Positions 7,811 through 36,534 of a stretch of 64,000 nucleotides of DNA are shown in pieces. Position 1 is the stretch's first letter. Every line of letters begins with the position of its first letter. The notes beneath the pieces were generated by a model, which worked only from the letters and a program-made list of their open reading frames with translations, ran no database searches and had not been told where the DNA came from. The stretch comes from an uncultured Thermoleophilia bacterium. GTDB taxonomy: Bacteria > Actinomycetota > Thermoleophilia > UBA2241. The position numbers and the translations under genes were made by a program. The stretch covers positions 544,001 through 608,000 of the forward strand of contig CAVQSP010000013.1 of NCBI GenBank assembly GCA_963715985.1, given 5' to 3'.

Positions 7811-7831
7811 ACCGGGGTGCGGCAGTCCGGC

Positions 7832-7861
7832 TTGCCACCTCTGCCCGTGCGTAGGTACACT
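7832..7861 (+). promoter_or_regulatory. Putative sigma-70-type promoter of pylBCD
   Basis: TTGCCA-18 nt-TACACT. Confidence 0.5.
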
Positions 7862-7927
7862 CGCCTGCGCGGCGACTGTGGCCGTTTCGCAGTCTCCCGG
7901 TCCACCTCTCGAAGGGGGGAACCTCCA

Positions 7928-9008
7928 GTGGCTCAGCCGACGCTCCTCATCGACGACCTCTGCGACAGGGCGCTGTCCGGAGAGAAGCTGGGGGTGCGCG
8001 AGCTGGAGGCGCTGCTCGCGGCCGACGAAGCCGGAGCGGAGACTGTCTTCGCGGCGGCGCGCGACGCCCGGCGCCGCGTCTTCGGGAGCACCGTGTTCCT
8101 CTATGGGTTCGTCTACTTCTCCACCTACTGCCGCAACGAGTGCGCGTTCTGCTTCTACCGCGCCGACAACACGGAGAGTCCGCGGTACCGCAAGACCCTG
8201 GACGAGGTCGTGGCCATCTGCCACGACCTGGCCGGGTCCGGTGTCGTGCTCCTTGACCTCACGATGGGAGAGGACCCCGTCATCCACGACGACCCGGGCT
8301 TTCGCGGGCTGCTGGAACTCGTGTCCTCCGTCCTGGAGGGCAGCGGCCTGCCCGTGATGGTGTCGCCGGGCGTGGTGCCGGGCCCCGTGCTCGCCGACCT
8401 CGCGGCGTGCGGGGCCGACTGGTACGCCCTGTATCAGGAGACCCACACTGCGGAGCTGTACGGGCGCCTGCGCGTCGGACAGCCGTACGCGGCGCGCGCC
8501 GAGGCGCGCAGCGCGGCCCGGCGCGCCGGCCTGCTCGTGGAGGACGGCCTGCTCACCGGCATCGGCGACACGGCCGCAGACCGCGCCCATTCGGTGGCCG
8601 TGATGCGCGAGGCCGCGTGGGAGCAGGTGCGCGTCATGACCTTCGTGCCCCAGGCGGGCACCCCGCTTGCAAGACACCACGCCGGCCGGCGACAACGCCG
8701 AGCTGCTCACGATCGCGGCCATGCGCCTGGCCATGCCGGAGGCGCTCATCCCCGCCTCGCTTGACGTGGACGGCATCGCCGGTCTGGAGCGCCGTCTGAA
8801 CGCCGGTGCCAATGTGGTGACGTCCATCGTCCCGCCCACCGTGGGCCTGGCCGGGGTGTCGCAGAGCGAACTGGACATCGAGGAGGGCCACCGTACCGTC
8901 GAGGGCGTGTTGCCCCACCTCGAGCGGCTCGGGATGCGCGCCGGCTCGGTGGACGAGTACCGCGCCTGGCTGACGGAGGCTCACACCCGCGCTCTGGGGC
9001 ACGCGTGA
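7928..9008 (+). CDS. pylB: Methylornithine synthase PylB (radical SAM); one frameshift near 8670
   Basis: FLYGFVYFSTYCRNECAFCFYR, DLTMGEDP, GADWYALYQET, QVRVMTFVPQAGTP; next frame IPASLDVDGIAGLERRLNAGANVVTSIVPP. Confidence 0.93.
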
Positions 9009-10252
9009 GGCTCCTCGTCGTCGGCGGCAAGCTGCAGGGTACGGAGGCCGCCTATCTGGGCGCCAAAGCGGGCTGGGAGGTCGTCCTCGTGGACCGCCGC
9101 GAGGCTCCCCCTGCGGCCGGCCTCGCCGCCCGTCACATCGTCGCGGACATCACCGCCGACGAGGACCGTGCACGCACGCTGGTGGCCTCCTGCGACGCGG
9201 TGCTGCCCGCCTGCGAGGATCTGGCCACGCTGGAGTGGCTGGCGGCCCGCGTGGAGGGCTGGGGCGTGCCGCTGCTGTTCGACCTCGCGGCCTACCGCGT
9301 CACGCAGTCAAAGGCGGCCTCGAGGGACCTTTTCGAGAGGCTCGGCGTGCCACGCCCCGCGTCGTGGCCGCACTGCGGATTCCCCGCCGTCGTCAAACCG
9401 GACGTGGCCAGCGGCAGCGATGGCGTCGCCGTGGTCGGCGATGAGGTGGAGCTCGAACAGGCCACGGCGGCGCTGCGCGCGGCCGGGCACGAGCCTCTGG
9501 TAGAGGAGTACGTCGCCGGGCCGTCTCTCTGGTACGAGGTCCTCGCCGCCGGCGGACGCTCAAGGGCGCTCCAGGTCACAGGCCTCGAGTTCGACGCCGT
9601 CTACGACTGTAAGCGCGTCGTGGCGCCGGTGGGCGAGGTGGGCGTCGGCGAAGAGCCGGCGCCGGTGGGCGCCGACGGCGGCACGGACTGGGAGCGCAGC
9701 GTGCCCGCCGGCACGCTGGCGGCGTTCGCCGGCGTCTCCGCCCGTCTCGCCGAGGGACTCGGCCTGTGCGGCCTCATGGACGTGGAGGTCATGGTGCGCG
9801 CCGGCGGGCCGCTCGTGCTCGAGATCGACGCCCGGCTGCCCAGCCAGACGCCTACCGCGGTGTACTGGTCCAGCGGTGTCAACATCCTGGAACTGCTGCA
9901 CGAGACGGTCGTGGCCGGCGCGCCCCCGGCGGTCGAGCCGGCCCCGCGCTACGCCTGCGTCTACCAGCACGTGAACGTGCGCGGGGGTTTGGCCGAGGTC
10001 GTGGGCGAGCATGTGATGGGAAGCGCGGCGCCGTTGCGCCTCGTGGAAGGGCTCTTCGGCGCGCACGAGGTGCTCACAGACTACCGCCCGGGCGCGGCCG
10101 AGTGGTGTGCGACGCTCATCACTACGGCGGACACCGCCTCCGGCGCCCGGGAGGCGGCCGACCAGGCGGTCCGGGACCTCGTCTCGCACGAGGGCCTTGA
10201 GCTCGTCCCGGAGAACGGCGCCGGGCGTGTCGACGAAGAGGTGTACAAGTGA
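9005..10252 (+). CDS. pylC: 3-methylornithine--L-lysine ligase PylC (ATP-grasp)
   Basis: VVGGKLQGTEAAYL, YDCKRV, GLMDVEV, LEIDARLPSQTPTAVYWSSGVN, GEHVM. Confidence 0.93.
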   Translation: MRLLVVGGKLQGTEAAYLGAKAGWEVVLVDRREAPPAAGLAARHIVADITADEDRARTLVASCDAVLPACEDLATLEWLAARVEGWGVPLLFDLAAYRVTQSKAASRDLFERLGVPRPASWPHCGFPAVVKPDVASGSDGVAVVGDEVELEQATAALRAAGHEPLVEEYVAGPSLWYEVLAAGGRSRALQVTGLEFDAVYDCKRVVAPVGEVGVGEEPAPVGADGGTDWERSVPAGTLAAFAGVSARLAEGLGLCGLMDVEVMVRAGGPLVLEIDARLPSQTPTAVYWSSGVNILELLHETVVAGAPPAVEPAPRYACVYQHVNVRGGLAEVVGEHVMGSAAPLRLVEGLFGAHEVLTDYRPGAAEWCATLITTADTASGAREAADQAVRDLVSHEGLELVPENGAGRVDEEVYK

Positions 10253-11055
10253 CGAGACTCACCGAACAGGACGTGCGCTCACTCACCGAGCGGCTCGCCG
10301 CCTTCGAGGACGGGCTGCGCGAAGTCGCGGGCATCGGCTTGCGCGAGCTCGCCATGGCCACGGTCGCGGACCCCCCGGTGTGCGTACCCCTCCACGGCAC
10401 GCGGATCGCGGCGGTGCCCATCACCTCGGGCCAGGGAGTGATCTCCGGGTTCACGGATTGCGTGGCCACGATACTGCGCCACATCGACTGTGACGCCTGG
10501 GTCACACAGCAGCCGGACGTGCGTGGCATCCAGGAGGCCATGACCAGCCGCGCCGAGGTCATCTTCCTCGCCGACGACTATCGCTTCGTGGCGCTCGACG
10601 TGCGCAAAGGCCGCTGCATCGACGACGATCCCGCTACGGCCGACGGCTACGTGACGGCGCTCGAGGCTGCGGCCGGCGGCTTGTTCGGCCGCAGGGTGCT
10701 GCTCCTCGGCCTGGGGCCTGTGGGCAGGGCCGCTGCGCGCCGCCTGGTGCGGTGCGGGGCGAAGGTCGAGGTCGTGGAGCCCGACGAGGCGCGATTGCAG
10801 GCCGCGCTGGACATCGGGCTCCGCATCAGGCCGGTCACGCTCGAGGAAGGCCTCTCCCGCTGCGACCTGATCTTCGATGCCACGCCGGCGCCGGACTTCA
10901 TCGACGCCGGCGACATCTCGGAGGCCACCATCGCCGCAGTGCCGGGCATCCCCTCGGCGTTCACACCCGCGGCGCAGGCGGCCCTCGGCGTGCGCCACAT
11001 CCACGAGCCGCTTGCCGTGGGCGTGGCCGTGATGGCCGCTCGCGCGCTCGTCTAG
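10249..11055 (+). CDS. pylD: Pyrrolysine synthase (3-methylornithyl-N6-lysine dehydrogenase) PylD
   Basis: MTRL start, VPITSGQGVISGF, PDVRG, FLADD, ATADGYV, GLGPVG, DATP, HEPLAVGV; ends in TAG. Confidence 0.92.
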   Translation: MTRLTEQDVRSLTERLAAFEDGLREVAGIGLRELAMATVADPPVCVPLHGTRIAAVPITSGQGVISGFTDCVATILRHIDCDAWVTQQPDVRGIQEAMTSRAEVIFLADDYRFVALDVRKGRCIDDDPATADGYVTALEAAAGGLFGRRVLLLGLGPVGRAAARRLVRCGAKVEVVEPDEARLQAALDIGLRIRPVTLEEGLSRCDLIFDATPAPDFIDAGDISEATIAAVPGIPSAFTPAAQAALGVRHIHEPLAVGVAVMAARALV

Positions 11056-11125
11056 GCGCGCCGGCGGCGAGACCGTCCTGCGCTCGCCGGACGCTTCGGC
11101 GACTCGTAGTACAATGGTCGCGCGC

Positions 11126-11198
11126 GGGGGGTCGATCGTAAGGATCAGCGCGGACTCTAAATCCACGTAGGCGGGTGTGACTCCCGCACTCCCCGCCA
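11126..11198 (+). tRNA. pylT: tRNA-Pyl (CUA anticodon, amber-decoding)
   Basis: GGGGGGT/ACTCCCC acceptor, G discriminator and encoded CCA; single linker base; GATC/GATC D-stem with 5-nt loop; long anticodon stem with CTCTAAA loop; short variable loop; T-loop without TTC; TACAAT at 11110-11115. Confidence 0.96.
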
Positions 11199-11245
11199 CT
11201 CTCTCTTCTTCCCGGCCCAGCCTGACGGCACCGGCGTGCCGCGTC

Positions 11246-12175
11246 TCAGGGCACGAACGTGACCGGGATGCGCACCTCGTCCTGGCGCGAGCCGTCCTCC
11301 ATCGACTGGTCGTAGACGATGAGGGTACCCGCCCCCGCGGACGTGCTGAAGGGGATCACCTTGCGGAAGTCGCCGCGCTCCGGGCCGCCGGCCGAGGCCT
11401 GCACCGGGACGTTGACGATGCGGCGGCCGCTGTCGTCGATGAGGCGAGTCATGAAGGCGCCCTCGAACACCAGGGCCGTCCCCGAGAGGACGAACGGGTT
11501 CGTGAGGACGGCGCCGACGCCGGGGCGCTCGACGAAGATGGCCGGCTCGAAGTCCGACCACTCGGCGCGCGTCTGCCCCGGATCGACGAGGAGGCCCTCG
11601 CCGCCGAGCGAGGCCAGCGGCTCGCCGTCCATGCGCAGGTCCACGGACTTCACCGAGTCGAACTGGGTGACCGTGTAGACGACCTGCGCCACGCGCGCCT
11701 GCATGGAGAGCGAACCGCCGCCCGAGGCGAACTCCCCCGACAGGTCCACGGTGGCGACGCCGTCCTTGACGGACACGCCGAGCAATCGCGTGCCGGGCGG
11801 GACGGCGCTGGAGAGGCCGGCGGCCTGCTCCGAGGTCGCCGGCCCGTCGCACAGCGCCGTCAGTGCAGCGGCGGCCACGGCTTGGGTGCGTGGCACCTGC
11901 CGCTCGGCCACGCCGAGCTTCTCGCCACGCAGGAAGTACGGACGAACGGTGGTCGTCGCGGCGGCGGGCGACGACGACGGCGCCTCCGACTCCTGTGGCG
12001 AGGCCGGCGTCGTGGTCCCGCTCGCGGCGCCGGTCGGAGTGGCGCCGCCCGTCGCGCCGCCGGCTGTGCCGCCGCAGGCGGCCGCCCCGGCGGCGCCGGC
12101 CAGTGCGAGGATGAGCGCGAGTGCGAGGAGTGTGGGCCGCAGGCGCGCAGTGCGCGGGCGCGGGATGTGGATCAT
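11246..12175 (-). CDS. Secreted/lipoprotein with GerMN and Gmad2-like Ig domains
   Basis: Signal peptide with AAAC, Thr/Ala linker, GVATVDLSGEF...AQVVYTVTQF, GTALVFEG. Confidence 0.8.
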   Translation of the reverse strand: MIHIPRPRTARLRPTLLALALILALAGAAGAAACGGTAGGATGGATPTGAASGTTTPASPQESEAPSSSPAAATTTVRPYFLRGEKLGVAERQVPRTQAVAAAALTALCDGPATSEQAAGLSSAVPPGTRLLGVSVKDGVATVDLSGEFASGGGSLSMQARVAQVVYTVTQFDSVKSVDLRMDGEPLASLGGEGLLVDPGQTRAEWSDFEPAIFVERPGVGAVLTNPFVLSGTALVFEGAFMTRLIDDSGRRIVNVPVQASAGGPERGDFRKVIPFSTSAGAGTLIVYDQSMEDGSRQDEVRIPVTFVP

Positions 12176-12261
12176 GGGCGGCCTCGTCTCGGCGATCGCA
12201 GGGGATTCACTTTCGCCGCCACGGGGGCCGCCTCCTGCCGGGGGTGGTAGACTGCAGCCCC

Positions 12262-12588
12262 ATGCCGACCGACCCCAACAAGGCGCGGTACTACCGCAAG
12301 CAGATCCCGCTCTTCCGGCTGCTGGAGAAGATCAAGCTGTGGCCCTCGCGCCGCGGCATCCTGCACGGCATCCGCGAGTTCGAGCCACGCGGCTCCTACG
12401 CCATCGTCGTCACGCACTGCGGCAAGCAGATGGTGGTGCACGACTCCAAGACCAGCCGCGCCGCCCGCTGGCTGCGCAACAAGTGGTACGCGGAGGCCTG
12501 CCCGAAGTGCCGCATCCCCGAGTGGAAGCTCCAGAAGTACGCCTCGACGCACTTCAATCGCGGGTACGGCTCTCACCTGCACGAATGA
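12262..12588 (+). CDS. pylSn: Pyrrolysyl-tRNA synthetase N-terminal subunit PylSn
   Basis: KIKLWPSRRGILHGI, THCG, SKTSRAARWLRNKW, ACPKCRIPEWKL; TAGACT 8 nt upstream. Confidence 0.95.
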   Translation: MPTDPNKARYYRKQIPLFRLLEKIKLWPSRRGILHGIREFEPRGSYAIVVTHCGKQMVVHDSKTSRAARWLRNKWYAEACPKCRIPEWKLQKYASTHFNRGYGSHLHE

Positions 12589-13241: not shown

Positions 13242-14120
13242 TCAGAGCAGCCGCCAGCTCTCCGGGCGCAGCCGCACAGACTCCGGTGCCAGCAGGACCT
13301 TGTCCAGGGAGGCGAGTATGGCGGCCTTGTCCCGCGGCAGGCGGCCGCCCACGGGCAGGTAGTTGGAGGCGTGGTTGCTGCGGAAGAGGCAGTCCGACAC
13401 GTCGAGGTCGGCGACGATCTCGCGCAGCTCGCGCAGCATCCCCAGGGAGTCGGGGAGCACGAGCTCTCCGCTCGCGACCCTCCGCTCCATGGCGGTGCCG
13501 GGCGTGAGCATGAGCGTGAGCACGCCGATGTACTGGGGGTCGATGGCGGACAGAGCCCGGCCCGTGGCTGCGCCGTGTTCCAGCGACCGCTCCGCCCCGG
13601 CCAGCCCGAGGATGGCGGTCACCGAAAGGGCGATGCCGGCCTCCGTGGCGCGCCGGCAGCCGTCGATCTGCTCCGCCACCGTCATGCCCTTGTGGACGTC
13701 GGCCAGGGTCTGGTCGTCGCCGGACTCCAGGCCCAGGTAGAGAAGCGCCAGGCCGTGTTCGCGGAGCGACGCCAGATCCTCCACGCTCTTGGCCAGCAGG
13801 TTGCGCGCGTTGGCGTAGCTGCTCACGCGCTCCAGATTGGGGAGCGCACGGTGGAGCAGTTGGAGGATGTCGTGGAGCTTGCGCGGACTCAGGGCGAGCG
13901 CGTCGCCGTCCGCCAGAAAGACGCGGTCCACGCGGGTGCGCACGGTGGACGGCAGGTTGAGGACGTCGTCCACCACCTCGTCGAAGGGCCGCACCGCGAA
14001 CGGCTTGTCGAGGTAAGTGCCGCAGAAGTCGCAGGTGTTGTTGGAGCACCCGTACGTCACCTGGACGATCAGGCTGGAGGCTTCGCTCGGGGGGCGGATG
14101 ACGGCACCGTGGTATCTCAC
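13242..14120 (-). CDS. Radical SAM protein (RPPSEA subfamily)
   Basis: IRPPSEASSLIVQVTYGCSNNTCDFCGTY, VFLADGDAL, YLGLESG, FRSNHASNYL. Confidence 0.88.
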   Translation of the reverse strand: MRYHGAVIRPPSEASSLIVQVTYGCSNNTCDFCGTYLDKPFAVRPFDEVVDDVLNLPSTVRTRVDRVFLADGDALALSPRKLHDILQLLHRALPNLERVSSYANARNLLAKSVEDLASLREHGLALLYLGLESGDDQTLADVHKGMTVAEQIDGCRRATEAGIALSVTAILGLAGAERSLEHGAATGRALSAIDPQYIGVLTLMLTPGTAMERRVASGELVLPDSLGMLRELREIVADLDVSDCLFRSNHASNYLPVGGRLPRDKAAILASLDKVLLAPESVRLRPESWRLL

Positions 14121-14312
14121 GCCCCTGATGCTAGCACGGGTGCCCGTGGTCGCGCGGCCTTGTGCGCCGGGACACATGGTGGGCTCCGAGCGCGGCTGAT
14201 ATACTCCGGCGGTCGCAGGAAGGGGGAGCGACACGCCGTCTCCAGCCTTCCTCGAACCGCCACACCTCGCAGTGCGGTGTAGCCGTTGGAGACATTGGGA
14301 GGAGCCCCACGC

Positions 14313-14946
14313 ATGGCCACCATCTACGAAGAAGCAGCCCAGACCATCATCGACGCCGACCGCGCCGGGGCCGAAGCGGTCGCAGCTCGCGCCCTCGCCG
14401 AGGGCATCAGCCCCGCCGACATCATGCAGAACGGCTTCGTCATGGGCATCCAGGAGGTCGGCGAGCTCTTCGAGAGCGGCGAGGTCTTCCTCCCCGAGCT
14501 GATGATGAGCGCCGACGCCATGGCCGGCGCCACCGAGGTCACCAACGCCGCCCTCGAGGGCGAGGCCGCCGAGGCCAAGGGCGTGATCGTCATCGGCACC
14601 GTGCAGGGCGACGTGCACGACATCGGCAAGGCGATCGTGATCGCCTACCTGAAGGCCAACGGCTACGAGGTCCACGACCTCGGGCGCGACGTGCCCGCCG
14701 AGGCCTTCCTCACCCGTGCCGCCGAGACCGGCGCCGACGTGATCGGCATGAGCGCCCTGCTCACGACGACGATGGAGGAGCAGAAGAAGGTCATCAAGCG
14801 CGTGCAGCGAGGAGGGCCTGCCCTACAAGTGCGTCGTCGGCGGCGCCCCCGCCACGCAGCGCTGGGCCGACCAGATCGGCGCCGACGCCTACGCCGAGGA
14901 CGCCAACGACGGGGTCAAGAAGATCAACGAGCTGCTGGGGAAGTAA
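14313..14946 (+). CDS. Methyltransferase cognate corrinoid protein (MttC/MtbC-like); frameshift near 14808
   Basis: VGELFESGEVFLPELMMSA, GTVQGDVHDIGK, DLGRDVP, SALLTTTM; next frame VVGGAPATQRWADQIGADAYAEDA. Confidence 0.9.
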
Positions 14947-14970
14947 GAGCCCGGACAGCTGAGTGCGCCG

Positions 14971-15004
14971 TCGAGGGGGCGGGCCGTGAGGCCCGCCCCC
15001 TCGC
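14971..15004. terminator. GC hairpin terminator
   Basis: CGAGGGGGCGGGCC GTGA GGCCCGCCCCCTCG. Confidence 0.6.
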
Positions 15005-15160
15005 GCGTACGCCACTCGTGCGCTGCACCCTCGGCGTCTGAACGAGTGGGCCGACCGGTCCGACTGCTACCGCGACAGCCCGACGCATGCGCGGGGCGCC
15101 GACCTCGACCAGGTCGTGGCCTGGTGCGAGCCCGGACCCGGTGTGGCGGCGCTGGACTGC

Positions 15161-15324: not shown

Positions 15325-16155
15325 TCAGATGTTGAGCCGCACGCCGTTCACGTACGTGAGGCTGCGGCCGGCGCGCTCGATGTTGGGGTAGCCCTCGCGC
15401 ACCATGATCAGCCGTTCGAGGCCGAACCCGAGGCCCACCCACGGCTCCATGATGCCCCAGTTGCCGTCCAGCGGGTGAGGGCCCATCCCGGCCGAGCACA
15501 CCTCCGTGCCGCCGACCTCGACATCCACCATCTGGCCGTACACCTCGGACTCGGTGCGCACGAGCTCGTACTCGCTCACCCCGGCGGCCTGCATCACCAG
15601 CGCCGCGAGCTCGTTCATGCGCTCGCGGCAGGTGCCTGCCGGCGTGCCGAGCTCTACGAGGTTGAGCATCGTGAACTCGTTGAGGTGGCTGGCGCCCTTG
15701 CTGTCGCGGCGGAAGCAGGTGCCGATCTCGAAGATGCCGAAGGGGCGGCCCCACATGCGGCCCAGACGGCGCATCACGGTGTACAGGTTGGGTGCCAGCA
15801 TGGGCCGCAGGCAGCGCCCGTCCTCGAGCCAGAACACCTGCTCGCGCAGCGGGTGCCCGTGCTCGATACCCATCTTGACGAGCGAGTCGGCGGCGATGAT
15901 GAGCGGCGTCACCACGGGGACGAACCCGGCCCCGCAGAGGGCGGTGCGCAGCGCCGTCTCAAGCTCGATCAGCTCCGGCGCCCGGCCGCCGTCGCGAAGC
16001 TCCTGCAGGCGTCGCCGGCCGTCGCGGACCAGTTCGTCCTCGGCGGCGCGAAACGCGGCGTCGCGCGCCGCCGCGTCGGCGAAGGTCGCCGCGGTCAGCC
16101 CGGCGCCCCCGCCGAGCTCGCGCAGGCGCTGCAGTTGCGTGGCGGTGAGGTTCAC
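15325..16155 (-). CDS. pylSc: Pyrrolysyl-tRNA synthetase catalytic subunit PylSc
   Basis: CLRPMLAPNLY, FEIGTCFRRDSKGASHLNEFTMLNLVELG, VYG, GPHPLD..WGI..PWVGLGFGLERL; AAAGGAG before GTG at 16155 (alternative start 16185). Confidence 0.96.
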   Translation of the reverse strand: MNLTATQLQRLRELGGGAGLTAATFADAAARDAAFRAAEDELVRDGRRRLQELRDGGRAPELIELETALRTALCGAGFVPVVTPLIIAADSLVKMGIEHGHPLREQVFWLEDGRCLRPMLAPNLYTVMRRLGRMWGRPFGIFEIGTCFRRDSKGASHLNEFTMLNLVELGTPAGTCRERMNELAALVMQAAGVSEYELVRTESEVYGQMVDVEVGGTEVCSAGMGPHPLDGNWGIMEPWVGLGFGLERLIMVREGYPNIERAGRSLTYVNGVRLNI

Positions 16156-16181
16156 GCTGTCTCCTTTGTCCGGCGCCGGCG

Positions 16182-17267
16182 TCACGTCCCCGCCCCGGGG
16201 AGCCGAACGCGGGCCAGGTAGTCCGTGAGGCCGCCCACGAGGGCTCGGGCCACCGCCTCGATGTGGGATGGGCGTCGCGCCAGGCGCTCCTCGTCGGGGT
16301 TGCTCAGGAAGAGCGGCTCGACAAGAACGGCGATGGCGCGCGTCTCGCGCAGCACGCCGTAGTTGCGCCCGAACTCGCCCAGGCTGCAGCCGCCCGTGGC
16401 CTCGAGCCGGGCGGCCAGATGCCCGGCCAGCAGGCGCCCGTGCTCGGAGAAGTAGTGGCCGCGCTGGAAGTAGTAGCAGGCGGCGCCACGAGCGGCCGTG
16501 GAGCGGTCCTGGTTGCCGTGCAGCGAGATGAAGCAGTCGGCGCCCGCCGCACCGGCGGCCTCGGCGCGTGCGTACAGCGGCAGCGTGTCGTCACGCTCGC
16601 GTGTGAGCCGCACGCGACAGCCCTCGGCGCGGAGCAGCTCGGCGAAGCGCAGCCCGAGCGCCAGCGAGAAGTCCTTCTCCGCGAGGCCTGACGGCGAGAC
16701 GTACCCGGTGTCGGTGCCGCCGTGCCCGGGGTCGATCACCACCACCTGCCCGGTGAGGCTGCGCGCCGGCACGTAGCCGCCGTCACGTTCGGGGATCTTC
16801 TTGCCCTCGCGCCCCGACTCCGCCTTGCGCAGCGCCTCGAGCTTGCGGATCGTGCTCTCGCCGACGATGCCGTCGGGGATGAGCCCGGCGTTGCGCTGGA
16901 AGTCGAGCACGCCGCGCTCCACGTGGTCGTCGTGCACGCCGCGTTCGGCGCCGGCGTTGAAGCCCAGCAGGTTGAGCTTGACCTGCAGGGTGAGCACGTC
17001 GTCGCCGCGAAACGGCGGCTCCTTGAGGTAGAGCAGCCGGTCGCCGAGCGCGTAGCCCGCCTCCACGAGCTCCCGCCACGTGTTGGCGCCCACCACCCCG
17101 TCGGCCAGCATGTCGCGCTCCTGCTGGAAGGTGCGAACAGCCGCCTCGGTGCTGGGTCCGAAGAACCCGTCCGCGCCCTCGCGGCCGGGCTCGTGTCCCT
17201 GCCCGCGCAGGCGGGTCTGTACGTCGAGGACTTCTTTGCCGCGGTCGCCGCGGGAGAGGTTACGCAC
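16182..17267 (-). CDS. N-acetylmuramoyl-L-alanine amidase with two peptidoglycan-binding domains (CwlM-like)
   Basis: ADGFFGPSTEAAVRTFQ repeats; VVIDPGHGG, ISLH, VLVEPLFLSN. Confidence 0.88.
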   Translation of the reverse strand: MRNLSRGDRGKEVLDVQTRLRGQGHEPGREGADGFFGPSTEAAVRTFQQERDMLADGVVGANTWRELVEAGYALGDRLLYLKEPPFRGDDVLTLQVKLNLLGFNAGAERGVHDDHVERGVLDFQRNAGLIPDGIVGESTIRKLEALRKAESGREGKKIPERDGGYVPARSLTGQVVVIDPGHGGTDTGYVSPSGLAEKDFSLALGLRFAELLRAEGCRVRLTRERDDTLPLYARAEAAGAAGADCFISLHGNQDRSTAARGAACYYFQRGHYFSEHGRLLAGHLAARLEATGGCSLGEFGRNYGVLRETRAIAVLVEPLFLSNPDEERLARRPSHIEAVARALVGGLTDYLARVRLPGAGT

Positions 17268-35103: not shown

Positions 35104-36534
35104 TCACGACCGTCTGGACTCGCCGCCGGCGCTCACGCTGCGCACCGTCCCGGGCGGCGTGGGACGTGGCCACATGCGCTTGAGCGCCTTGATGAACGCC
35201 TTGTTGCGCTCGTCCTTGCGCCAGTTGCGGATGATGACCATGCCCCAGCCGTGGAAGAGCAGCTGCTTCGTGAAACGGAACGTGAAGATGTACTTGAGCC
35301 ACGTGCGCAACGAGTAGAAGCGCATGTAGCCGCGGAGCACCTCGATCTGCAGCTCGTACGGCGTCATGAGCTTGGGCTCGAAGACCACGTGGTGGGCATC
35401 GTAGAGCTCCCAGCGCTTGTCGAAGATGCGGCCCGCCGCGTCCAGCTCCTCGAACTGCGGCGTGCCCGGCAGCGGCGTGAGGATGTTGAGCATCACGGTG
35501 TCGATCTTGTTCTTGATGGCGAACGTCACCGTGTCGCGCACGGTCTGCACGGTGTCCGTGTCCGCGCCGAGCACGAACATGCCGTGGCTCTTGATGCCGA
35601 AGTCGTGAAGCACCTTGATGGCGCGCTCGATGTCCTCGACCGTCTGTGACTTCTCATAGCCGTCCAGGGTGGCCTGGTTGACCGACTCCAGGCCCAGGTA
35701 CACGAGCTCGCAGCCCGTGCGCCGCATGAGGTCGAGCAGCTCCGGGTCGCGGACCACGTCGGTGCGCACCTGAGCCGACCAGGGGATGACGAGGTTGCGC
35801 TCGACCATCATGGTGAGGAGCCGCTTGAGGCGCTTCTTGTCGGCCGCCATGTTGTCGTCGTAGAAGAAGATGCGCCTGGGGCGCTTGTCCTCCAGCTCGG
35901 CGATGACACTCTCGGCGCTGCGGAAGCGGTACTTGCGCCCGAACATCGCCGTCACCGAGCAGAAGTTGCAGGCGAACGGGCAGCCCCAGCTGGTCATGAT
36001 CGGCATCGTCTGCAGCCGCTCGTTGCCGACCAGCAGCGAGAGGTCGGGGAAGGGCAGCGTGTCCAGGTCGGTACAGCGCTCGCGCAGCGGATTATCCACC
36101 GTCTCGCCGTCGCGGCGGAACGAGAGCCCGCCCACGTCCTCCAACCGGCGCGAGCCGTCAAGCGCCTCGATGAGCTCGAGCATGAGCTCCTCGCCGCCCT
36201 CGCCGCGGGCCACGTAGTCGGCATGCCCCAGAGCCTCCTCCGCCATGAACGTGACGTGGGACCCGCCGATGATCACGGGGATGCCGCGGGCCCGAAGCTC
36301 GTCGGCGAACTGGAAGGCGGTGCTGGCCGTGGACGTGGTGCTCGAGAGGCCCACGAGGTCGGACGTGTACACGTCCTCCCAGTCGATGGGAGCCATGGTG
36401 GGGTTGTAGACGAGCACGTCGTGGCCGTGGCTCTTGAGGGTCGCCGCGATGATCGGCAGGCCGAGGCGCGGCAGGAGCACCTTGGCCCACACGTGCATGC
36501 CCGGGGGTTCAGGCTCGATGAGACGGATCTTCAT
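35104..36534 (-). CDS. B12-binding-domain radical SAM protein
   Basis: LPRLGLP, IGGSHVTF, ARGEGE, SWGCPFACNFCSV, FFYDDN, YLGLES. Confidence 0.88.
   Translation of the reverse strand: MKIRLIEPEPPGMHVWAKVLLPRLGLPIIAATLKSHGHDVLVYNPTMAPIDWEDVYTSDLVGLSSTTSTASTAFQFADELRARGIPVIIGGSHVTFMAEEALGHADYVARGEGGEELMLELIEALDGSRRLEDVGGLSFRRDGETVDNPLRERCTDLDTLPFPDLSLLVGNERLQTMPIMTSWGCPFACNFCSVTAMFGRKYRFRSAESVIAELEDKRPRRIFFYDDNMAADKKRLKRLLTMMVERNLVIPWSAQVRTDVVRDPELLDLMRRTGCELVYLGLESVNQATLDGYEKSQTVEDIERAIKVLHDFGIKSHGMFVLGADTDTVQTVRDTVTFAIKNKIDTVMLNILTPLPGTPQFEELDAAGRIFDKRWELYDAHHVVFEPKLMTPYELQIEVLRGYMRFYSLRTWLKYIFTFRFTKQLLFHGWGMVIIRNWRKDERNKAFIKALKRMWPRPTPPGTVRSVSAGGESRRS

Follow-up and report, generated by a model that had tools for sequence, protein, structure and literature searches.

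Positions 11126-11198 on the forward strand of the window, by which we mean the whole 64,000-nucleotide stretch of Thermoleophilia DNA analyzed here, almost certainly hold a genuine pylT gene, and one predicted from its sequence and surroundings to work. In our view this is very probably a functional, single amber-suppressor tRNA-Pyl of class S in a 73-nt form, with a C-A mismatch that its anticodon helix tolerates. In essence, the mismatch would represent an ordinary evolutionary intermediate, and the gene a lineage-typical length variant rather than a new kind of tRNA.

Identity and cloverleaf of the gene

ARAGORN calls a tRNA-Pyl at 11126-11198 (+), with cta as its anticodon (position 32). 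A covariance model built from only 22 distinct 72-nt bacterial pylT sequences, including those of cultured Desulfosporosinus and Paradesulfitobacterium, matches the same interval from model position 1 to 72 at 84 bits (E 1.3e-17). This is its sole match in the 64-kb window, and the model marks C11151/A11165 as a non-standard pair. A single pylT was found in the genome. The first-pass annotation, made from the letters alone, had placed a tRNA-Pyl here and proposed a covariance-model alignment as the check; ARAGORN, the full-model match, and the neighboring pyl genes bear it out. Its readings of the anticodon-arm strands (GCGCGGA/TCCACGT), D loop (GTAAG), and T loop (TGTGACT) also agree with the sequence. 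The parts of the gene are as follows.

11126-11198 (+): pylT, tRNA-Pyl(CUA), 70 nt plus encoded CCA (ARAGORN; pylT covariance model; match in 32 of 36 congeneric genomes)
11126-11132 / 11188-11194 (+): acceptor stem, 7 bp, one G-U
C11133 (+): connector at position 8, one base, standing alone
11138-11142 (+): D loop GTAAG, closed by the D stem GATC/GATC
11147 (+): unpaired purine, A11147, between D stem and anticodon helix (segment parsing)
11148-11168 (+): anticodon arm, seven opposed positions; strands GCGCGGA (11148-11154) and TCCACGT (11162-11168)
11157-11159 (+): anticodon CTA (CUA), within the 7-nt anticodon loop CTCTAAA (CUCUAAA)
11169-11170 (+): AG, the rest of the variable region, invariant in the 73-nt and 72-nt alignments
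11176-11182 (+): T loop TGTGACT, closed by the 5-bp T stem GCGGG/CCCGC
11195 and 11196-11198 (+): discriminator G11195 and encoded CCA

Both the minimum free energy and the centroid structures from RNAfold are the cloverleaf, at -30.9 kcal/mol. Such an energy is not significant by itself (z = -1.68; 12 of 200 shuffles fold equally well), and the case for the gene therefore draws on ARAGORN, the covariance model, and conservation among congeners. Every identity element described for the tRNA-Pyl of D. hafniense—G73, G1:C72, G10:C25, and A11:U24 (PMC1851642)—is present, G1:C72 being G11126 paired with C11194 and G73 being G11195. The T loop, UGUGACU, is without T54-psi55-C56 and keeps U54 and A58, which are reported to be conserved in tRNA-Pyl (PMC1851642).

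Genomic neighborhood, clients, and a working scheme

The gene lies among genes for pyrrolysine synthesis and charging.

7817-9008 (+): pylB, split over two frames near 8665-8670 (TIGR03910)
9005-10252 (+): pylC (TIGR03909, 317.9 bits against a cut-off of 248.3)
10249-11055 (+): pylD (TIGR03911, 199.5 bits against a cut-off of 150.05; Pfam PylD_N)
11110-11115 (+): TACAAT, a -10-like hexamer, 10 nt before the mature pylT 5' end
12121-12588 (+): pylSn, small tRNA-binding subunit (TIGR03912, 123.5 bits against a cut-off of 51.15; domain at ORF residues 61-146)
14286-15041 (+): methyltransferase-cognate corrinoid protein (TIGR02370, E 4.1e-51, 173.2 bits, below the cut-off of 215.3; Pfam B12-binding domains)
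15325-16185 (-): pylSc, catalytic subunit (TIGR02367, 316 bits against a cut-off of 178.15, positions 1-242 of 242)

PylC, PylD, PylSn, and PylSc are intact, and all score above their NCBIfam cut-offs. PylSc homologues, like the related loci, bear the labels of Thermoleophilia or Actinomycetota MAGs. In pylB, the ORF at 7817-8764 corresponds to TIGR03910 positions 5-252 of 347 and the frame at 8667-9008 to positions 247-347. Were this frameshift real, the cell could not make pyrrolysine, which would count against a working tRNA. Related contigs are without one base at 8670 in all three Logan runs that cover the site, and many other MttB genes in the assembly likewise appear as adjacent frame fragments; for these reasons we read the break as probably an assembly indel error, not gene decay. 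As a separate matter, a radical-SAM ORF at 13242-14675 (-) overlaps the corrinoid-protein ORF at 14286-15041 (+) by about 390 nt, so that at least one of the two must start further in.

There are 89 MttB-family matches, part of a very large expansion of the MttB superfamily across many contigs (for example C3, C9, C12, and C14). When the nine longest matches with one TAG were aligned with four TAG-free homologues, the TAG fell in the same column in all nine genes, each full or near-full in length, and the TAG-free homologues had I, C, L, or A there. Nine genes with a TAG in one aligned column indicate that the tRNA-Pyl has clients. The pylT gene is linked to pylS and pylBCD, with TAG-bearing methyltransferase genes in the same genome. 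More broadly, pyrrolysine decoding together with a large MttB family appears to be widespread among the uncultured Thermoleophilia of one wetland and soil family.

Rfam PYLIS_2 (mtbB) and PYLIS_3 (mttB) elements score above gathering by the pyl clusters of relatives, including one Thermoleophilia MAG (L040:938-1037 (-), L102:19061-19160 (-), L079:12895-12994 (+), and L102:8633-8732 (+)); Rfam found neither element in the Thermoleophilia window.

Upstream of the gene, a scan of 10950-11350 for consensus promoters and terminators found none, including no full sigma-70 promoter. The TACAAT box was recognized only through comparison of relatives: it is present at 23 of 30 congeneric loci, at the 10-nt distance in 21 of them, within sequence that is otherwise unconserved. 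It is likely to be pylT's own -10 element, which would give a very short leader.

A search for RNA runs that contain the stretch listed none, which weighs neither for nor against expression. We infer expression and charging along the following lines. Transcription is probably driven by the gene's own TACAAT element, right after pylBCD, and the tRNA would be charged with pyrrolysine by the split enzyme of PylSc and PylSn, encoded 1-5 kb away. The charged tRNA would in turn decode the lone in-frame UAG in genes for MttB-family methyltransferases. Within the tRNA, the extra 5' base probably lets the "position 26" base of the 72-nt form always pair with the first base of the variable loop, giving rise to a seven-pair helix, an unpaired purine, and an AG remainder.

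Distribution of the 73-nt form

The first-pass annotation had also counted one base more than usual, and the extra base is real. From the D stem to the anticodon loop the gene has 8 nt, compared with 7 in the 72-nt bacterial form; segment parsing assigns two bases, A11147 and G11148, where the 72-nt class has one. The 3' side, from anticodon loop to T stem, is 9 nt in all 52 parsed pylT. Infernal puts the inserted base at 11147/11148, just after the D-stem connector, with a PP of about 0.6.

Close relatives share this layout. Thirty-two of 36 congeneric genomes have a pylT match, and all 30 extracted copies are 73 nt long with the same arrangement. When the class was sampled evenly at 151 genomes, a pylT match came from 27, and the 73-nt form accounts for 23 of these, namely all 23 of family f1 (22 of the 25 sampled genomes plus this one, from seven genera). 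Two genomes of another family of the same class, f4, have a 72-nt pylT, and two weak 75-nt matches lie in other families. Around 80 PylSc loci, ARAGORN found a pylT near 53, the other 27 being without one within the available DNA, which is not evidence of absence; 28 of the 53 are 73 nt long, 24 are 72 nt, and the last, with an unusual D arm, is 75 nt, in what is a sample and not a census. The congener, class, and PylSc-locus sets overlap (one genome per species), and their counts are not additive.

The 73-nt form is present in every Actinomycetota pylT found and in four others: L089 and L102 from Thermodesulfobacteriota/Syntrophobacterales, L092 labelled Deltaproteobacteria, and L090 from Dehalococcoidales. 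The named, cultured organisms in the sample all have the 72-nt form. In a PylSc tree of 79 rows, made from tblastn matches taken without filters and with L067 and L096 dropped as fragments, the Actinomycetota sequences form a clade of 42 rows (SH-aLRT 100), and all 24 pylT found there are 73 nt long. At least three changes between 72 and 73 are needed over the whole tree.

The 73-nt architecture is therefore the norm of family f1 and also belongs to a few other bacterial lineages. The first-pass annotation had suggested that it may be a new subtype, a view to be given up if an identical architecture proved common in known bacterial pylT. Common it is, in 28 of 53 pylT near PylSc loci and 23 of 27 class genomes, yet the carriers are all uncultured MAGs and not characterized species.

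Some individual loci from these surveys depart from both patterns. At L034:10001-10072 (-), the same as G044:C12:50949-51020, a different family of the class has a 72-nt pylT with the D stem GGUC/GACC; its discriminator is T (U73) instead of G, resembling the rare "pylTU" type reported by Guo et al. 2022. An unclassified bacterium has a 75-nt pylT at L074:9953-10027 (+), with a D arm off the GAUC/5-nt/GAUC pattern that ARAGORN draws as a 3-bp stem and a 10-nt loop. The locus L064 is labelled candidate division Zixibacteria, and its PylSc and pylT fall inside the Thermoleophilia clade, likely through a binning or labelling error.

A seventh pair in the anticodon helix

Descriptions of tRNA-Pyl, bacterial included, give the anticodon stem 6 bp and the variable loop 3 nt (PMC1851642, PMC7609411, PMC3941956, PMC11764691). 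ARAGORN draws the 73-nt bases in the same way, with the 6-bp stem preceded by two spacers and the variable loop at 3 nt. For the gene considered here, the variable region is 3 nt if U11168 is counted into it, leaving a 6-bp stem, and 2 nt (AG) if a seventh pair forms. The pairs run G11148-U11168, C-G, G-C, the C11151/A11165 mismatch, G-C, G-C, A-U. The arm thus departs from the usual 6-bp stem in having seven opposed positions, six standard and one C-A, a deviation in length in which the elongated stem is not lost.

Comparison among the 73-nt sequences gives the seventh pair its weight. At columns 23/43 the pair is standard in all 18 distinct sequences (GU in 7, GC in 6, AU in 5), whereas the corresponding bases of the 72-nt class, "26" and "44," pair in only 9 of 22 distinct sequences. 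This difference indicates that the seventh anticodon-stem pair is under constraint in the longer class. The unpaired purine connector (11147) is A in 16 and G in 2 of the 18. As predicted by comparative sequence analysis, then, the 73-nt class has a seven-pair anticodon helix supported by covariation, one unpaired purine connector, and an invariant AG.

We also considered whether position 8 might pair with the extra purine (11133/11147) to extend the D stem to five pairs. The pair was rejected, being standard in only 3 of the 18 sequences (C/A in 14, A/A in 1); the three are L066, L089, and L092, with C:G, U:A, and U:G.

The sections of the literature covered by our search describe neither a seven-pair stem nor two length classes of pylT; published supplementary tables may already list such sequences. 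Bacterial pylT falls into two length classes, the longer with a covarying seventh pair, a division of which the reviews, in the portions covered, make no mention.

The C11151/A11165 mismatch

The first-pass annotation read the mismatch correctly, and C11151/A11165 is the only non-standard pair in the pylT stems. Its description of the stem as "broken" does not hold in the M. alvus sense: the irregularity is a symmetric 1x1 C-A mismatch, without a bulge, at a site that is C:G or U:A in relatives. Of the 30 congeners, 25 carry U at position 26 (forming U:A), and the remaining 5, this genome and L005-L008, carry C. The wider set shows C-A in L042, L045, L046, and L064 as well, and C:G occupies the position in L052 and L093.

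The same pair varies throughout both length classes. It is UA in 9, CG in 6, and otherwise in 3 of the 18 distinct 73-nt sequences, and the homologous pair in the 72-nt class is UA in 10, CG in 8, UG in 3, and GC in 1. The position 26 pair thus appears to flip between C:G and U:A, by way of U-G in one length class and C-A in the other. The Thermoleophilia pylT is unique among the 41 distinct sequences collected, and its anticodon arm is one base from the arm of L093 (C:G) and one base from that of L070 (U:A). The predicted cost of the mismatch is about 8 kcal/mol (-30.9 compared with -38.6 to -38.9 for congeners), with the cloverleaf still the best fold.

The base itself is well attested. A 52-nt Logan contig from run X3 covers 11141-11192 with 0 differences at a depth of 13.6, other contigs there carrying relatives' variants, though run X3 may be the assembly's source sample, which leaves the independence of this support uncertain. 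The exact contig and the same C opposite A in four other congeners dispose of an assembly slip, one of the outcomes that the first-pass annotation had set out as its own refutation. Taken together, the C-A mismatch is probably a tolerated minority variant, a near-neutral intermediate of the C:G to U:A exchange. The tolerance would follow from the way PylRS recognizes its tRNA, in which the anticodon stem is not read.

Comparison with known tRNA-Pyl classes

Class S is the bacterial pylT grouping of Beattie et al. 2023 (PMC7615293), with PylSn and PylSc as partner and D. hafniense as type; we made the comparison through the Desulfosporosinus and Paradesulfitobacterium genes L079, L094, L106, and L107. 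The Thermoleophilia gene has in common with them the CUA anticodon in CUCUAAA, a 7-bp acceptor stem with G5-U, a GAUC/GAUC D stem, and a 5-nt D loop. It further shares the 5-bp T stem, the 7-nt T loop without T-psi-C, the G discriminator, the encoded CCA, the 9 nt from anticodon loop to T stem, and the separate pylSn and pylSc genes. Its identity to the 72-nt class is 74-84%, at or above 75% to 20 of the 22 distinct sequences. With separate pylSn and pylSc genes and this level of identity, it falls, as judged from sequence, within class S as defined.

There are differences, too. Unlike the 72-nt class S genes, the Thermoleophilia pylT has 8 rather than 7 nt before the anticodon loop, and in its class the top, seventh pair is always formed. 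Position 8 is C, compared with the G8 reported for D. hafniense. Gene order also differs, with pylBCD-pylT followed by other genes, pylSn, and then pylSc on the opposite strand, where the reported bacterial order is pylTScBCDSn (PMC3941956). The discriminator of the Desulfosporosinus I2 tRNA is given at position 69 (PMC7615293), which corresponds to the 72-nt form. In their account of Pyl-encoding bacteria, Guo et al. 2022 (PMC9630628) report two Actinobacteria and fourteen Deltaproteobacteria, and divide the bacterial pylT genes between two clades, pylT1 and pylT2.

The tRNA-Pyl of M. alvus and other Methanomassiliicoccales (classes A and B) likewise has an elongated anticodon stem with an irregularity in it. 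Those archaeal tRNAs are reported to have a bulged unpaired base or small internal loop and a D loop of 3-4 nt, and the M. alvus type to lack the position-8 base or vary in the number of connectors, with no PylSn partner (PMC7609411, PMC3941956). The Thermoleophilia pylT, in contrast, has a 1x1 C-A mismatch, one connector base, a 5-nt D loop, and PylSn, and on these features an M. alvus-like broken stem is ruled out.

Closer in architecture are the four 73-nt genes from outside Actinomycetota, L089, L102, L092, and L090. They share the 8/9 spacing and the seven-pair helix, with A:U as their top pair, and L090 also has one C-A mismatch, at another position. Identity to them is 80-86%; position 8 and the T stem carry other bases, and their PylSc belong to the other main clade of the tree.

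Orthogonality and competing explanations

The first-pass annotation had suggested a distinct subtype that might serve as an orthogonal pair. In its strongest version, the 73-nt form, with or without the C-A mismatch, would be functionally distinct: an altered core, made up of the seven-pair helix and the two-base variable remainder, would be read differently by PylSn or PylSc and so be naturally orthogonal to classes N, A, B, C, and S. Several observations lend this some appeal. Constraint on the seventh pair is confined to the 73-nt class (18/18 compared with 9/22), PylSn reportedly makes contact with both the T and variable loops (PMC9630628, PMC11467909), and the reviews, in the portions covered, describe only a 6-bp stem with a 3-nt variable loop. 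On the enzyme side, the Actinomycetota PylSc form a separate, well-supported clade, and PylSc is 50-58% identical to the Bacillota, Dehalococcoidales, and delta-type enzymes, straddling a reported 55% threshold (PMC7615293). Even so, we think the proposal improbable. The 3' side with its variable region keeps its usual length, being 9 nt here as in all 52 parsed genes, and every D. hafniense identity element is kept. PylRS reportedly does not use the anticodon stem (PMC11467909, PMC1851642), and deletion of the unpaired base from M. alvus tRNA-Pyl is reported to have left translation unchanged (PMC7609411). Beattie et al. (PMC7615293) look for orthogonal pairs below 75% tRNA identity, a level that 20 of the 22 comparisons reach or exceed within the range of 74-84%, and cross-charging is reported in about 90% of cases (PMC11467909). 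Moreover, at least three switches between 72 and 73 nt occur across the PylSc tree, so that length tracks the enzyme poorly. Natural orthogonality of the Thermoleophilia tRNA-Pyl looks unlikely, and cross-reaction with class S enzymes is what we would expect, given the retained identity elements, the unread anticodon stem, the variable side of ordinary length, and the high identity to the class. Any lead toward a new orthogonal pair would lie with the 73-nt class as a whole, not with the C-A mismatch.

Two further explanations question the gene or the base. One holds that the Pyl system is decaying, the pylT mismatch and the pylB frameshift together marking the loss of pyrrolysine decoding; the split pylB, the lower predicted stability, and a pylT sequence found once among 41 distinct ones would fit. 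Decay is nonetheless very hard to reconcile with nine MttB homologues that keep a single TAG in the same aligned column, with PylC, PylD, PylSn, and PylSc intact above their cut-offs, or with the retained TACAAT box. The C-A state is shared by four other congeners and L064, and the absence of one base at 8670 from relatives' contigs in three of three covering runs, along with the fragmentation of other MttB genes, speaks for assembly indels more than decay. We hold this account to be most improbable. Another would make C11151 itself an assembly or sequencing error that conceals a true U:A pair, as might be suspected from frame breaks elsewhere in the assembly and from the T at this position in 25 of 30 congeners. 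It is scarcely credible: the X3 contig is exact over 11141-11192 at depth 13.6, beside contigs with relatives' variants, C stands opposite A in four other species-level genomes, and the suspected errors of the assembly are insertions and deletions, not substitutions.

A bolder reading of the same material is worth stating, although we consider it rather unlikely. The 73-nt bacterial pylT might constitute a structurally distinct, undescribed subclass of tRNA-Pyl, with a true seven-bp anticodon helix, two remaining variable bases, and a core that holds one more unpaired purine, fixed in a Thermoleophilia family and recurring in Thermodesulfobacteriota and Dehalococcoidia. Under this reading, the seven-bp helix would be the longest that we found described in any elongator tRNA family. 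If it holds, and if PylSn docks differently on the altered core, these genes could supply one more naturally occurring, mutually orthogonal PylRS/tRNA pair. Tolerance of C-A would then also imply that the 73-nt anticodon helix is unusually permissive.

Detection by standard scanners

The first-pass annotation expected that standard tRNA scanners might miss the gene. For ARAGORN, which finds it, this was mistaken. Rfam gave no match at gathering score over the whole window, and no tRNA match up to E 10 around pylT. The Rfam tRNA model also recovered none of four control loci at which ARAGORN calls a pylT; two of the four belong to named, cultured organisms whose pylT is 72 nt long. Because the model misses every pylT tried, canonical ones included, its silence says nothing about the Thermoleophilia gene. 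Elsewhere in the window, ARAGORN calls an 80-nt tRNA-Glu(CTC) at 36076-36155 (-), which has no Rfam tRNA match up to E 1 and is probably a false call. For those annotating such genomes, the practical point is that the Rfam tRNA model does not call pylT, whereas ARAGORN does.
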